64,000 bases of DNA from Gammaproteobacteria bacterium (lineage in GTDB: Bacteria; Pseudomonadota; Gammaproteobacteria; G965277405): contig OZ255726.1 of NCBI GenBank assembly GCA_965277405.1, forward strand, positions 1,696,001 to 1,760,000, given 5' to 3'. A model generated the notes under the pieces. That model saw nothing but the letters and a program-made list of their open reading frames with translations, had not been told where the DNA came from and ran no database searches. The translations under genes and the position numbers were made by a program. Shown here one piece after another: positions 2,241-47,134 of this stretch (its first letter is position 1; each line of letters opens with the position of its first letter).

Positions 2241-2533
2241 GGAAGCTCTGATTAACTCGCTGATGGAGCGAGTTTGCCTGCAATTGTTGATGATTGCAAG
2301 GCGCAAACCTCTAAGCGCATGCCGTAGCATATACGCCAAAGGATGCAACACAGCAAGTACTGCTGCAGCAAACCCAAAGTATATTCAGCACAACGACTGG
2401 AAAAAAGCGGTACTAACGTCGTTGCAGCACTTGGCAGCACCCACAAGACCACCAATATTATCTGCGCACTGCGTCTAGTTATCATCAGCGTTTTTTCTCC
2501 GTCTCGCCCGTCATGGACTTAATCAGAGATTCC
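2241..2533 (+). mobile_element. MITE-like palindromic element, long copy 1 (293 bp)
   Basis: TIRs GGAAGCTCTGATTAA / TTAATCAGAGATTCC; CTAA direct repeat on both sides (2237-2240, 2534-2537); similar to copies at 31789 and 46849. Confidence 0.9.
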
Positions 2534-31085: not shown

Positions 31086-31799
31086 ATGACCACAGCAAGG
31101 CGGCGCATTGTCGTATTAACTGGCGCAGGGGTATCTGCTGAGTCTGGCTTGAAAACATTCCGCGCAGCTGATGGGCTATGGGAAAATCACCGTGTAGAAG
31201 ATGTGGCAAGTATGCAAGGGTTTTTGCGAAATCCGCAATTGGTGCAGGAATTTTATAACCAACGCAGAAAACAGCTCCTGCACGCAGCAGTCCAACCCAA
31301 TCCCGCCCATATTGCTCTTGCGGAATTGGCTGCGCAACCCGATATTCAACTCACCTTAATCACCCAGAACATCGATGATTTACACGAGCGCGGTGGCAGT
31401 AACAATGTGCTGCATATGCATGGTGAATTATTGCAAGCACGTTGCCAACAGTGCCAGCAAATTGCAGCTTGGCGCACAGATATAACCAGTAGTTCCGTAT
31501 GCAAAAATTGTAAGAAGGTTGCAACATTGCGCCCAAATATAGTATGGTTTGGCGAAATGCCATTGTATCTTGATACAATTGACGTAGCGCTGGATAATGC
31601 CACAGTTTTTGTTGCAATTGGCACAGCGGGGAATGTCTGTCCCGCTGCTCAGTTTGTCCAGATTGCCAACGCACGTGGTATTGAAACACTTGAGCTGAAC
31701 ATAGCAATAACAACTAGTAGCAATCTGTTTCGCAATGGAATGTACGGGTCAGCGAGCAAAATTGTGCCACATTGGGTTAAGCAGTTAAGGAACCTCTGA
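31086..31799 (+). CDS. cobB: NAD-dependent protein deacylase (class III sirtuin)
   Basis: GAGVSAESGLKTFR, FYNQRR, TQNIDDLHER, HMHGEL, two CxxC, RPNIVWFGE. Confidence 0.93.
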   Translation: MTTARRRIVVLTGAGVSAESGLKTFRAADGLWENHRVEDVASMQGFLRNPQLVQEFYNQRRKQLLHAAVQPNPAHIALAELAAQPDIQLTLITQNIDDLHERGGSNNVLHMHGELLQARCQQCQQIAAWRTDITSSSVCKNCKKVATLRPNIVWFGEMPLYLDTIDVALDNATVFVAIGTAGNVCPAAQFVQIANARGIETLELNIAITTSSNLFRNGMYGSASKIVPHWVKQLRNL

Positions 31800-32073
31800 T
31801 TAACTCGCTGATGGAGCGAGTTTGCCTGCAATTGCTGATGATTGCAAGGCGCATTCCGCAGGCGTATGCCGTAGCATATACGCCAAGGGATGCAACACAG
31901 CAAGTACCGCTTGTAGGCAAACCATCATATATTCAACAGAAGGACTGGAAAAAACGCTGCGCTAAGGTCGTTGCAGCACTTGATAATACCACCAGTATTA
32001 TCTGCGTACTGCGCTTAAGTTTCATCAGCGTTTTTTCTCCGTCTCGCCCATCATGGAATTAATCAGAGCTTTC
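31789..32073 (+). mobile_element. MITE-like palindromic element, long copy 2 (285 bp)
   Basis: TIRs GGAACCTCTGATTAA / TTAATCAGAGCTTTC; TTAA direct repeat on both sides. Confidence 0.9.
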
Positions 32074-32084
32074 TTAAGTACTAT

Positions 32085-33479
32085 ATGAAGTCGAATGAAC
32101 CGCACAATGGGCAAGAGAACATCAACATTCAGCAGTCCCTGTTTGAGCCAATGACAACAACAGCACAATCAAAACAAAGCACTTTTGTAACCAACAACCA
32201 CAGGGTTTTGCAAAAAACCGTGTTGGCAGCGTGTTTGTTTTTTTCCCTTGGCATGGTATGGCTGTATAACGAATTTGGACTGCCACAGCGATTCAATACC
32301 ATTTATGAAATTGTCAACATTGCTCATGCCAACACAACTGTCGCAGGCGTTCAGCCAGTAGAGAATGCGTATCGTGTGGTCGACCATGTAATTAAAAAAA
32401 ACGAAGTCATTAGCACGATCGCTGAACAACATGATGCGCTGATTGCTCACTTATACCCAGTGCTGCAACGCAGTCCTGCGCTTGCATATTTAACCAATAA
32501 CCTGCGTGCTGGGCTATCAATACACCTGCATATCGATAGTGAAAATAAGCTGCAAAAAATAATATATCCGTTTTCGCCAGCAGAAACATTCCGTTTAGAG
32601 CTCAATGCCGGTGAGTATATCGCAACGGTCGATACCGTGCAGTATGACAAGACATTGGCTTATTATGAAGGCACATTAGCAACAGTGCTGTACCTTGATG
32701 CAAAAAAGAATGGGATGTCTGATGATTTGATTATGCGTTTTGCCAATATTTTCGCATGGGACATTGATTTGAATAGTGAGCTACGTACAGGTGCAAGATT
32801 CTCGTTAATGTATGAAAAACTATCGTTAAATGGCGAGTATATTCGCGATGGTATTATCCGTATGGCACGCTTGGTCAACGCAGGCGAAGTATATGAAGCG
32901 GTATATTTTGCTACTGAACGCGATACCAATGGCAGGGCAATCCAAGAAGGATTTTACAGCAAAACTGGGCAGAGTATGCGCAAGCGCTTTCTGCGGATGC
33001 CAGTTAAATTTGGCTATATATCATCGTCTTTTAACTTGGTAAGGGTGCACCCGATCTTCAAAACTATTCGTCCGCATTTGGGTACCGATTATGCCGCCAA
33101 GCGTGGCACACCAATTCATAGCGTCGGCAAGGGTGTGATTACTACATACGGTTGGATGAAAGGATATGGGCGTGTGGCGATTATCGACCATGGCAATGGC
33201 TATACGACGTTATACGCACATATGAATAGTTTTCGTAAAGGTTTTAAACGCGGCAAGCGGGTGCGCCAAGGTCAGATAATAGGCTATGTTGGCACGAGTG
33301 GCTATTCGACAGGGCCGCATGTTCACTATGAGTTTCGCATCAACGGGGTGGCAAAAAATTCAGTGCGCGTGCGGCTGCCTGGTGCTCCGCCAATTGGCAA
33401 AGAGCAAATCAAAGAATTTACAGTGGTGCATGAACAAACAGCAAAAGTGTTCAATGTTTTCGAGCGCCAGCATGGATAA
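32085..33479 (+). CDS. M23 peptidoglycan DD-endopeptidase (MepM/OapA-like)
   Basis: FAWDID, RPHLGTDYAA (HxxxD), YAHM, STGPHVHYEF (HxH). Confidence 0.9.
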   Translation: MKSNEPHNGQENINIQQSLFEPMTTTAQSKQSTFVTNNHRVLQKTVLAACLFFSLGMVWLYNEFGLPQRFNTIYEIVNIAHANTTVAGVQPVENAYRVVDHVIKKNEVISTIAEQHDALIAHLYPVLQRSPALAYLTNNLRAGLSIHLHIDSENKLQKIIYPFSPAETFRLELNAGEYIATVDTVQYDKTLAYYEGTLATVLYLDAKKNGMSDDLIMRFANIFAWDIDLNSELRTGARFSLMYEKLSLNGEYIRDGIIRMARLVNAGEVYEAVYFATERDTNGRAIQEGFYSKTGQSMRKRFLRMPVKFGYISSSFNLVRVHPIFKTIRPHLGTDYAAKRGTPIHSVGKGVITTYGWMKGYGRVAIIDHGNGYTTLYAHMNSFRKGFKRGKRVRQGQIIGYVGTSGYSTGPHVHYEFRINGVAKNSVRVRLPGAPPIGKEQIKEFTVVHEQTAKVFNVFERQHG

Positions 33480-42740: not shown

Positions 42741-42743
42741 TAA

Positions 42744-42936
42744 GGCACCTCTGAATAACGCGTTGATGGCTCGAGTTTGTCGGCAAATTCTGCCGATTAC
42801 CAAGCACACACCATAGCTTATATAGCACTGGGCGCAATATCACAAGCAGCGCGTTTACCGTAAACCATATAATATCGCTAGTGTTAGCTGCGTACTTTGC
42901 TACGACTCACCCATCATGGCATTATGCACGGGTGTT
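42744..42936 (+). mobile_element. Degenerate MITE-family copy (about 193 bp)
   Basis: Left end GGCACCTCTGAATAACGCGTTGATGGCTCGAGTTTG and right end CTCACCCATCATGGCATTATGCACGGGTGTT align to the ends of the long copies; flanked by TTAA and ATAA. Confidence 0.7.
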
Positions 42937-45177: not shown

Positions 45178-45302
45178 TGGCTTGTTATATTTTGGTTGGG
45201 AATGGTTGCAACAACAGGGTTACAGAAAAACATGGTAAATTAGTTCCACAAGCGGCGGGACTGCATACAATGCCGCGCATTCGCATAAGGCAGACACAGC
45301 GC

Positions 45303-45405
45303 ATGCATACATGTATTTATGTATACATGTATTTATGCATACATGTATTTATGCATACATGTATTTATGCATACATGTATTTATGCATACATGTATTTAT
45401 GCATA
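45303..45405. repeat. 16-bp tandem repeat, about 6.4 copies
   Basis: ATGCATACATGTATTT x6 (one copy with C>T) plus ATGCATA. Confidence 0.95.
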
Positions 45406-45417
45406 AAAGCGCACATA

Positions 45418-45492
45418 TATTATAAAGCAACCATAATTCTACTATTATAAAGCAACCATAACTCTACTATTTTAAAGTAAACATAACGCTAC
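45418..45492 (+). repeat. 25-bp tandem repeat x3 abutting the nqrA ATG
   Basis: TATTATAAAGCAACCATAATTCTAC / TATTATAAAGCAACCATAACTCTAC / TATTTTAAAGTAAACATAACGCTAC. Confidence 0.9.
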
Positions 45493-46848: not shown

Positions 46849-47134
46849 GGAACATCTGATCAAGTCCATGATGGGCGAGACGGAGAAAAAACGCTGATGA
46901 TAACTAGACGCAGTGCGCAGATAATACTGGTGGTATTATCAAGTGCTGCAACGACGTTAGCGCAGCGTTTTTTCCCGGCCTTCTATTGAATATATGATGG
47001 TTTGCCTACAAGCGGTACTTGCTGTGTTGCATCCCTTGGCGTATATGCTACGGCATGCGCTTAGCGGTTTGCGCCTTGCAATCATCAGCAATTGCAGGCA
47101 AACTCGCTCCATCAGCGACTTAATCAGAGGTTCC
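46849..47134 (-). mobile_element. MITE-like palindromic element, long copy 3 (286 bp, inverted)
   Basis: GGAACATCTGATCAA ... TTAATCAGAGGTTCC; reverse complement of copies 1 and 2; flanked by GTAA and ATAA. Confidence 0.9.

Follow-up and report, generated by a model that had tools for sequence, protein, structure and literature searches.

The window analysed here, a 64,000-nt stretch of DNA, corresponds to positions 1,696,001 to 1,760,000 of contig OZ255726.1 and belongs to a gammaproteobacterial genome (assembly GCA_965277405.1) of 2.17 Mb, which consists of one contig with 44.8% G+C. Between a Sir2/CobB-like open reading frame (ORF) and an M23-peptidase ORF, the window harbours a 285-bp MITE (miniature inverted-repeat transposable element), referred to below as copy 2, which is flanked by a TTAA target duplication (31785-31788 and 32074-32077). 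Each arm of the element accommodates a small module; these modules, A and B, both face inward and represent the same conserved folded unit of ~50 nt. In this unit a 7-bp stem (P1) is joined to a hairpin (P2) by an asymmetric internal loop rich in purines (5' GCA, 3' AA), and a longer closing stem (P0) encloses the whole. The following features are recognised in copy 2, the two arm domains from sequence and folding and the right terminal repeat from sequence:

31789..32073, + strand: MITE copy 2, 285 bp, containing both modules
31789..31806, + strand: left terminal inverted repeat (GGAACCTCTGATTAACTC), an 18-nt end found in identical form on a 1.23-kb insertion sequence (IS)
31820..31922, + strand: left-arm domain, in which closing stem P0-A (31820-31831 with 31911-31922) surrounds module A
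31851..31893, + strand: module A, with P1 31851-31857 paired to 31887-31893, GCA loop 31858-31860, P2 hairpin 31861-31884 and AA loop 31885-31886
31949..32036, - strand: right-arm domain, in which closing stem P0-B (A6CGCTG / CAGCGT6) surrounds module B
31973..32012, - strand: module B, with P1 32012-32006 paired to 31979-31973, GCA loop 32005-32003, P2 hairpin 32002-31982 and AA loop 31981-31980
32056..32073, - strand: right terminal inverted repeat

Read directly, module A is GCATTCC-GCA-GGCGTAT..ATACGCC-AA-GGGATGC and module B, on the other strand, is GCAGTAC-GCA-GATAATAC..GTATTATC-AA-GTGCTGC. When folded alone as RNA, A(+) reaches -20.9 kcal/mol (z -3.83) and B(-) -18.3 kcal/mol (z -4.82), in both instances with the shape given above and with none of 200 shuffles folding as well, whereas the opposite strands fold less stably (-18.6 kcal/mol for A(-) and -11.9 kcal/mol for B(+)). 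The entire copy 2 folds with a z of -7.2 on either strand. Sequence and RNA folding confirm the module coordinates, the 7-bp outer stem, the GCA/AA loop and the inner hairpin of a preliminary description of this locus, which had also placed each module within an inverted repeat of its own. Both of these repeats are present: around A, 31820-31831 and 31911-31922 form 11 of 12 pairs plus one G.T, and around B, 31949-31959 faces 32026-32036. The wobbles reported to pair on one strand only are found as well, A carrying a single T.G (31855 with 31889) and B a pair (31977 with 32008) that is C.A on the + strand and G.T on the - strand. As stated in the same account, each strand carries one sense module; it always lies in the arm nearest the 5' end of that strand. 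A comparison of the left half of the MITE consensus with the reverse complement of the right half, omitting the 20-nt termini, gave a score of 33.5, against 1.3 +/- 8.3 (maximum 29.5) in 500 shuffles. The two arms are therefore old inverted duplicates in which A and B occupy equivalent places and each reads inward from its own end, an arrangement that accounts for the presence of one module per strand.

Covariation of the unit across genomes

Elements with the same ends are found in other genomes. A scan of a species collection for the end motif, allowing 240-270 nt between the ends, returned at least 91 stretches, and 80 loci were listed. The listed loci come from ~31 other assemblies, as counted from titles, and the listed matches belong mostly to Gallionella, Nitrotoga, Nitrosomonadales, Burkholderiales, Methylophilaceae and Steroidobacteraceae, but also include Spongiibacteraceae, Saccharophagus and an acidobacterial genome. 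Lengths of the 81 extracted elements range from 272 to 302 bp; identical 4-nt flanks occur in 30 of the 79 for which both flanks are available, and YTAR accounts for 106 of the 158 flanks. The arms are barely alignable with the window MITE by BLAST past the first ~60 nt. Despite very different stems, a common layout is evident, namely ..AAGGC-[7 nt]-GCA-[hairpin]-AA-[7 nt]-AAC.., with outer stems such as GCGGTGC/GCACCGC, GCAGTCC/GGGCTGT, ATGGACC/GGTTCAT and TCGGACC/GGTCCGT, and others that contain tandem G.A/A.G pairs, for example GCGAGGC/GCCGAGC. A C(UUCG)G apex, which would have been an argument for RNA, is present in only 6 of the 81 elements and was dropped as evidence.

From these other-genome elements, 42 unique modules with GCA/AA loops were selected, comprising 20 distinct 5' arms of P1. 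Each P1 arm pairs with its own partner at 5.45 of 7 positions on average (6.55 when G.A is counted), compared with 3.93 for the partner of another module; the corresponding values for P2 are 6.19 and 4.24, and the duplex energy of P0 is -41.1 kcal/mol with the own partner and -25.7 kcal/mol with those of other modules. Alignment with MAFFT followed by RNAalifold recovered P1, the GCA/AA loop and P2, with compensatory changes in 11 of 13 pairs. In this alignment 93.6% of cells are paired (shuffles, 73.5 +/- 1.2), changes on both sides affect 91 cells (shuffles, 23.6 +/- 3.8) and the covariation score is 0.536 (shuffles, 0.184), a value equalled by none of 500 shuffles and far from the slid controls at 0.011-0.118. 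A structure-rich covariance model, R2, was derived from the same alignment. It yields 100 matches in the 80 loci and the window, with at least one match in 68 of the 80 loci, and in copy 2 it matches both module A (31843-31901, + strand, 45.9 bits) and module B (31965-32020, - strand, 44.7 bits). In the alignment fitted to R2 (A5), 90.0% of cells are paired as opposed to 67.5% in shuffles, and changes on both sides amount to 263 as opposed to 85.6 +/- 12.1.

A set assembled without selection on structure shows the same tendency at a lower level. It comprises both inward-reading arms of 26 elements (52 arms), taken at fixed offsets and aligned with MAFFT, with P1 and the base of P2 of the window copy mapped onto the alignment. 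Here 69.9% of cells are paired against 52.9 +/- 1.4 in shuffles, there are 77 changes on both sides against 32.3 +/- 3.7, and the score is 0.349 against 0.144, with slid controls at 0.015-0.059.

The strand on which the fold is maintained can be read from the mismatches. Among the 92 distinct rows of the R2 alignment, G.U occupies 40 cells and A.C 8 (p 3e-6), while G.A occupies 87. On the 5' side, 52 rows have a GCA loop and 19 a GAA loop, on the 3' side 69 have AA and 13 GA, and a recurrent T.C mismatch in P2 persists across distant families together with the tandem G.A pairs. A conserved tail, AAC, lies beside the unit on its 3' side. The compensatory changes, the predominance of G.U over A.C and the conservation of purines that are unpaired or G.A-paired indicate that selection acts on how the strand running 5' to 3' inward from each end folds, rather than on a double-stranded site or a symmetric cruciform, since the complementary strand would have mismatches.

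The unit is not confined to elements with the ends described here. R2 matches 22 of 150 other genomes in an even sample of the phylum, distributed over 17 of 97 other genera and including 14 of the 36 genomes from a single family. At 9 of 11 loci examined, the match is part of a 180-290-bp element, the terminal repeats of which do not resemble the IS5-type ends of the window MITE; several of these repeats start with CTAG or TAG (AGGGTCTGTTGACG.., CTAGTGCCCTGTCCC.., AGAACCTATCCCAG.., CTAGTACTCCGCC..). In nine of those loci the module is closed by a stem of 18-30 bp whose arms are 49-51 nt apart. A sequence-heavy model of the left-arm domain (R1) gave no match in 150 genomes of the class, and other genomes were reached only by the end-pattern scan and by R2. 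These matches show that the same unit, written in different stem letters, makes up the core of MITEs across many other Pseudomonadota, where it is bounded by ten or more unrelated kinds of ends (at least nine besides those of the window MITE). The module had been described at the outset as a cargo of the element, a notion that is borne out from other genomes only, by these ten or more unrelated kinds of transposon ends.

The element family and its insertion-sequence partner

The genome contains 169 full-length copies of the MITE (83 on the + and 86 on the - strand), 70-100% identical to the window copy, in addition to many partial ones. They are 285-294 bp long with 18-nt ends of the form GGAAS CTCTGATTAAG TC, and all copies end GGAAS-CTCTGATTAAG. 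Both ends were located in 165 copies; of these, 65 have identical 4-nt flanks, and 196 of 330 flanks are YTAR. The duplications are direct and not inverted: CTAA/CTAA occurs 30 times and TTAG/TTAG 19 times, compared with 3 for CTAA/TTAG and 5 for TTAG/CTAA. A 4-bp YTAR target duplication is a hallmark of the IS5 group. The MITE consensus has at least two stops in each of the six frames, all of which are closed; Pfam gives no match to an 83-aa ORF of the window copy, and crude ORFs contain only 2 of 165 copies.

The same 18-nt ends delimit a 1.23-kb IS that is present in 39 full copies and resembles the MITE at the ends only. It encodes a transposase of 315 aa with DDE_Tnp_1 (PF01609, 2.2e-30) and DUF772 (PF05598, 2.5e-19) domains, whose nearest plasmid-borne relatives are 51-53% identical and annotated as IS5 family, ISPst7 or IS1384. 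Together, MITE and IS make up 5.3% of the genome. According to the available text of a review, MITEs are shorter than 500 bp, bear terminal inverted repeats and flanking direct repeats, are non-coding and give rise to transcripts with stable stem-loops (PMC10969869). The family agrees with that definition in every respect checked, that is size below 500 bp, terminal repeats, direct flanking duplications and lack of coding capacity. Given its ends, the direct target duplications, the closed frames and a partner IS with the same ends, the element is, in the terms of PMC10969869, a type II MITE of an IS5-group insertion sequence, and presumably the IS5-group DDE transposase moves it in trans. A descriptor search of the whole genome detected 63 modules, 62 within the MITE and one outside, while the reversed genome yielded none; in this genome the module thus does not exist independently of the MITE.

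Further members of the family in the window, apart from copy 2, were recognised as follows:

2241..2533, + strand: MITE copy 1, 293 bp, with a CTAA duplication; its A is the GCAAACC/GCTAA variant and its B the long variant
2416-2480, - strand: R2 match in copy 1, in which only B is matched, 33.4 bits
30977..31023, no strand assigned: 47-bp miniature form, consisting of the left end, a 4-nt loop and the exact reverse complement of the left end (a perfect palindrome)
42742-42925: an old, decayed and internally deleted MITE copy, of which only the left end and a few internal stretches are recognisable
46849..47134, - strand: MITE copy 3, 286 bp, in the opposite orientation to copies 1 and 2
46902-46957 (+ strand, 56 bits) and 47021-47080 (- strand, 29 bits): R2 matches in copy 3

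Module A had been noted as partly decayed in copies 1 and 3, in agreement with the R2 scores, which give 29 bits for A of copy 3 and no match to A of copy 1 at E <= 0.01. End pairs 40-59 bp apart, comparable to the 47-bp miniature form, number 14 genome-wide.

At the site of copy 2, the left terminal repeat contains the stop TGA (31797-31799) of the upstream Sir2/CobB-like ORF (31086-31799). When the MITE and one TTAA are deleted in silico (31785-32087), the TGA of this ORF overlaps the ATG of the M23-peptidase ORF. The restored ATGA junction indicates that the MITE split a translationally coupled gene pair. An empty version of the insertion site was not found in three DNA contig sets. Searches for an exact 25-mer in a collection of genome contigs and for an exact 27-mer in metagenome contigs returned no matches, and neither did BLAST of the whole MITE against 40 genomes of the class. 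Elsewhere in the window, a tandem array with a 16-nt unit (ATGCATACATGTATTT) occupies 45287-45422 and is seen as repeats spaced by 8 nt. The cumulative GC skew of the genome has its minimum at ~0.46 Mb and its maximum at ~2.15 Mb, which corresponds to replichores of ~1.7 and 0.5 Mb; this unevenness suggests rearrangement in a repeat-rich genome.

Variation among the resident copies

The 169 copies were surveyed with a strict descriptor (7 of 7 outer pairs, GCA/AA loop, 6 of 6 inner pairs) and a relaxed one (at least 6 of 7 outer and at least 5 of 6 inner pairs). The strict descriptor finds an intact A in 7 copies, an intact B in 51 and the two together in 4; the relaxed one accepts A in 46 and B in 93. 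The window copy is unrepresentative of its family. In module A the GCA loop has become GCTAA in ~75 of 169 copies, and the inner stem carries C.A in 141 copies, the perfect T-A of the window being restricted to 13. The inner hairpin of A pairs better on the - strand in most copies, and the depiction of A as a + strand module is not borne out for this family. In the loop of module B, a 9-nt unit (ACCCACAAG or ACCCACAAT; e.g. 2440-2462) is present once in about half of the copies and has expanded to 2-5 tandem units in a few (loci L024, L033, L036, L050 and L157). R2 nonetheless recognises 83 of 100 arms in the first 50 copies (E <= 0.01 in a small search space), 33 of which score at least 40 bits.

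Several observations weigh against regarding the unit as a fold under selection, and most of them come from these resident copies. In pair counts over the 169 copies, variation is confined to one side. The two central pairs of P1 are A.A and A.G in the GCAAACC variant of A, found in 78-83 of ~145 copies; about half of the copies have the long form of B, whose P2 is broken and which carries the 9-nt ACCCACAAG unit; and the commonest haplotype (51 of 169) combines the two, so that both its modules are damaged. Damaged lineages have spread, and neither module is therefore strictly needed for spread in this genome. A pair-count test on 150 of 165 copies (every eleventh being dropped) found 78.7% of cells paired (shuffles, 78.5%) and a covariation score of 0.048 (shuffles, 0.047), with 45 of 500 shuffles as high and slid controls as high, and RNAalifold applied to 38 copies (every fourth) predicted other helices with no compensatory pairs. 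The comparison across genomes has its own weak points. R2 finds nothing in 12 of the 80 loci; the 42 modules come from a search that favours pairing and A5 was fitted to the model, so that both sets lean towards structure; the rows are related and the shuffle counts are not probabilities; and RNAalifold returned no consensus for the 52 unselected arms.

Of the claim that structure rather than sequence is conserved, the part that stands is thus the one seen across genomes, in the excess of compensatory changes in both the 42-module and the model-fitted alignments. Among the copies of this genome, neither covariation nor conservation of the loop holds, as is evident from a score indistinguishable from that of shuffles, from the GCTAA form of A and from an erased loop in B. 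The erasure is due to one identical complex change in 15 of 169 copies, by which the 3' arm of B has become the exact complement of its 5' arm, resulting in a perfect palindrome without GCA/AA. It occurs on at least seven haplotype backgrounds (e.g. loci L009, L010, L053 and L063) and looks like recurrent template-switch mutation or gene conversion. The sole within-genome signal comes from the closing stem of A, where CCT faces AGG in 29 copies and ATG faces CAT in 16, with 2 and 0 mixed combinations (Fisher 1e-10, for copies that are not independent events).

These patterns raise the question of whether the hairpins have any function. Common descent, together with template-switch (quasi-palindrome) mutation that mimics compensatory change, could have generated them, and template switching is real at small scale, as seen in the palindromised B that recurs on different backgrounds and in the 47-bp miniature form, which is perfectly palindromic. 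The closing-stem haplotypes of A, which differ by a 3-nt block on both sides, and the lack of covariation and extensive decay in this genome also speak for an absence of function. Such a process, however, would erase a conserved asymmetry and not keep it, whereas the loop, as GCA/AA or GAA/GA, persists along with the tandem G.A pairs and the T.C mismatch. The excess of G.U over A.C and the constant size of the unit, 49-51 nt between closing stems, between unrelated ends likewise argue for something other than mutational origin, and an absence of function is considered improbable.

Possible roles of the unit and comparison with known systems

The evidence taken jointly is probably best explained by a conserved one-strand fold, located in the arms of the MITE, that acts as a cis-acting signal of the element. 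Such a signal would serve the element whatever transposase moves it.

A number of features relate the MITE to transcription of its neighbourhood. The - strand folds better in 152 of 169 copies, and the consensus fold has 10 G.U pairs on the - strand and 5 on the + strand, a difference that is not significant alone. Where the flanking genes run in the same direction, the - strand of the MITE is co-directional with them in 64 of 93 cases (p 4e-4). This bias is retained with stricter ORF calls (41 vs 19), holds in both GC-skew regions and is strongest when the start of the downstream gene lies within 60 nt (29 vs 8). A terminator scan identified no simple terminator in the MITE; the A6CGCTG...CAGCGT6 stem around B is terminator-like and is not general in other families. 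On the - strand, a promoter-like site (ATGATA or ATGAAA, 16-17 nt, GATAAT; 32025-31997 in the window) is present in 120 of 169 copies, with its -10-like hexamer forming the 5' arm of the inner hairpin of B. This site was considered as a cause of the orientation bias and discarded, its presence being unrelated to orientation (44 of 64 vs 21 of 29).

Tentatively, a role in RNA is the favoured guess, though at rather less than even confidence. A transcript arriving from a flanking gene on either side would first meet a sense unit, which might provide a structured 3' region, involved in processing, stability or termination, and lower the cost of insertion. As the unit of each arm reads inward, any effect on the neighbours would be independent of orientation. 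Transcripts of MITEs are known to be processed or to modulate neighbouring genes, as outlined in the available text of PMC10969869.

A role of the fold as single-stranded DNA (ssDNA) in mobilisation or replication, although rather unlikely when taken on its own, would be nearly as probable as one in RNA. The inward strand, exposed as lagging-strand template, transposition intermediate or transferred DNA, might be recognised by a protein of the host or of the element and so aid copying or movement. REP hairpins, the ends of IS200/IS605 elements and integron attC sites are all read as folded single strands. The strand-specific fold, the conserved unpaired bases and the conserved AAC tail would fit such a mechanism, as would the symmetry of the two units, reminiscent of transposon ends, and the association of the unit with many ends, most of which are flanked by CTAG or TAG as in IS5-type elements. 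Damaged modules that persist after insertion would also be expected if the unit matters only during movement. On the other hand, the parent IS lacks such a unit beside its ends, the haplotypes with both modules damaged are the most numerous here, the genome has no match to a Y1/HUH transposase (PF01797) and no small GIY-YIG nuclease, and DDE transposases are not known to require folded single strands.

Beyond the choice between RNA and ssDNA, the cis-acting signal may have a wider significance. MITEs are usually seen as passive deletion products whose interior is irrelevant. Here, the interior contains a ~50-nt unit with strong covariation, strand-specific wobbles and conserved non-Watson-Crick loops, a pattern that is as a rule restricted to functional RNAs and to recombination sites recognised in the form of folded DNA. 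It is conceivable, if on balance doubtful, that the unit is a selected and exchangeable cargo of a large MITE superfamily: a signal folded as RNA or ssDNA that some conserved factor of the cell or of the element recognises, that passes between unrelated transposon backbones and that decides which elements invade and persist. Should the pattern described hold, it would point to a new cis-acting requirement or host interaction common to many bacterial miniature transposons, for which the unit would provide a ready search model.

As an IS5-type MITE, the element is of a known kind; the covarying core that it shares with other families is described neither in Rfam 15 nor in the literature found. 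Rfam 15 returned nothing on the MITE (E <= 10) and nothing on the modules in 20 loci of other genomes (E <= 0.1), and no description of the shared core was found in the literature searched, in which PMC11893778 and PMC3189936 were covered by their available text. That the modules are targets of an already described hairpin nuclease or transposase, be it Ssn with its NTS/SRM repeats, RAYT with REP sequences or a relative of the Rickettsia palindromic elements, is very improbable and largely refuted for this genome. Some P2 stems elsewhere do read TCGTAG..CTACGA, recalling the GTAG of REPs. Nevertheless, the RAYT domain Y1_Tnp (PF01797) has no match in this genome, whereas 6 of 14 control genomes match; the only GIY-YIG match is a 646-aa UvrC, with no small single-domain GIY-YIG gene; and closed frames leave no room for an in-frame peptide. 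The SRM pattern, as far as the available text of PMC11893778 defines it, has four matches in the genome and none in the MITE, compared with 2-10 in Markov controls.

In the structural respect, two systems read as folded single strands invite comparison. REP and REPIN sequences are abundant intergenic hairpins arranged as inverted doublets; the MITE, unlike these, has terminal inverted repeats and target duplications and resides in a genome without a Y1 transposase match. Integron attC sites conserve structure over sequence, with a strand-specific fold, unpaired or extrahelical bases and a variable apical part, in a size range similar to that of the unit. Unlike attC, the unit is devoid of the RYYYAAC...GTTRRRY core sites at its two ends and is found within MITEs, not beside cassettes.

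The preliminary description had suggested a likeness to Rickettsia palindromic elements, which did not survive comparison. Those elements, in the available text of PMC10969869, are ~150 bp long, encode a conserved peptide and are often inserted in frame in genes; judged by these described features, the MITE is set apart by being twice as long at 285-294 bp, by its six closed frames and by an almost always intergenic location. The NTS/SRM repeats, as they appear in the available text of PMC11893778, resemble the unit in being oriented hairpins with conserved flanking bases that are enriched in some symbionts, and differ from it in loop architecture; neither an Ssn-type gene nor the SRM pattern accompanies the unit here.

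Closer parallels are offered by other MITEs. Correia/NEMIS and ERIC transcripts form stable hairpins, and these elements influence their neighbours by way of promoters, IHF sites and sites for RNase III or RNase E (PMC10969869, available text), and the folding of the whole window copy and the orientation bias of 64 vs 29 relative to flanking genes are reminiscent of them. In the same text their effects are tied to terminal repeats or to motifs of one family, unlike the sub-terminal unit described here, whose stems covary and which is common to families with unrelated ends. MITEPsy1 of Pseudomonas syringae pv. phaseolicola (PMC3189936) is similar to the present MITE in that it is short and non-coding and bears ends like those of a resident IS5-family element; it generates a 4-nt duplication, CTAG or YTAA, and was trapped while transposing. 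MITEPsy1 is 100 nt long and the available text of PMC3189936 reports no conserved folded core, whereas the MITE of the window has 285-294 bp and two units and, as far as that text permits comparison, differs from MITEPsy1 in possessing a core common to elements with other ends.

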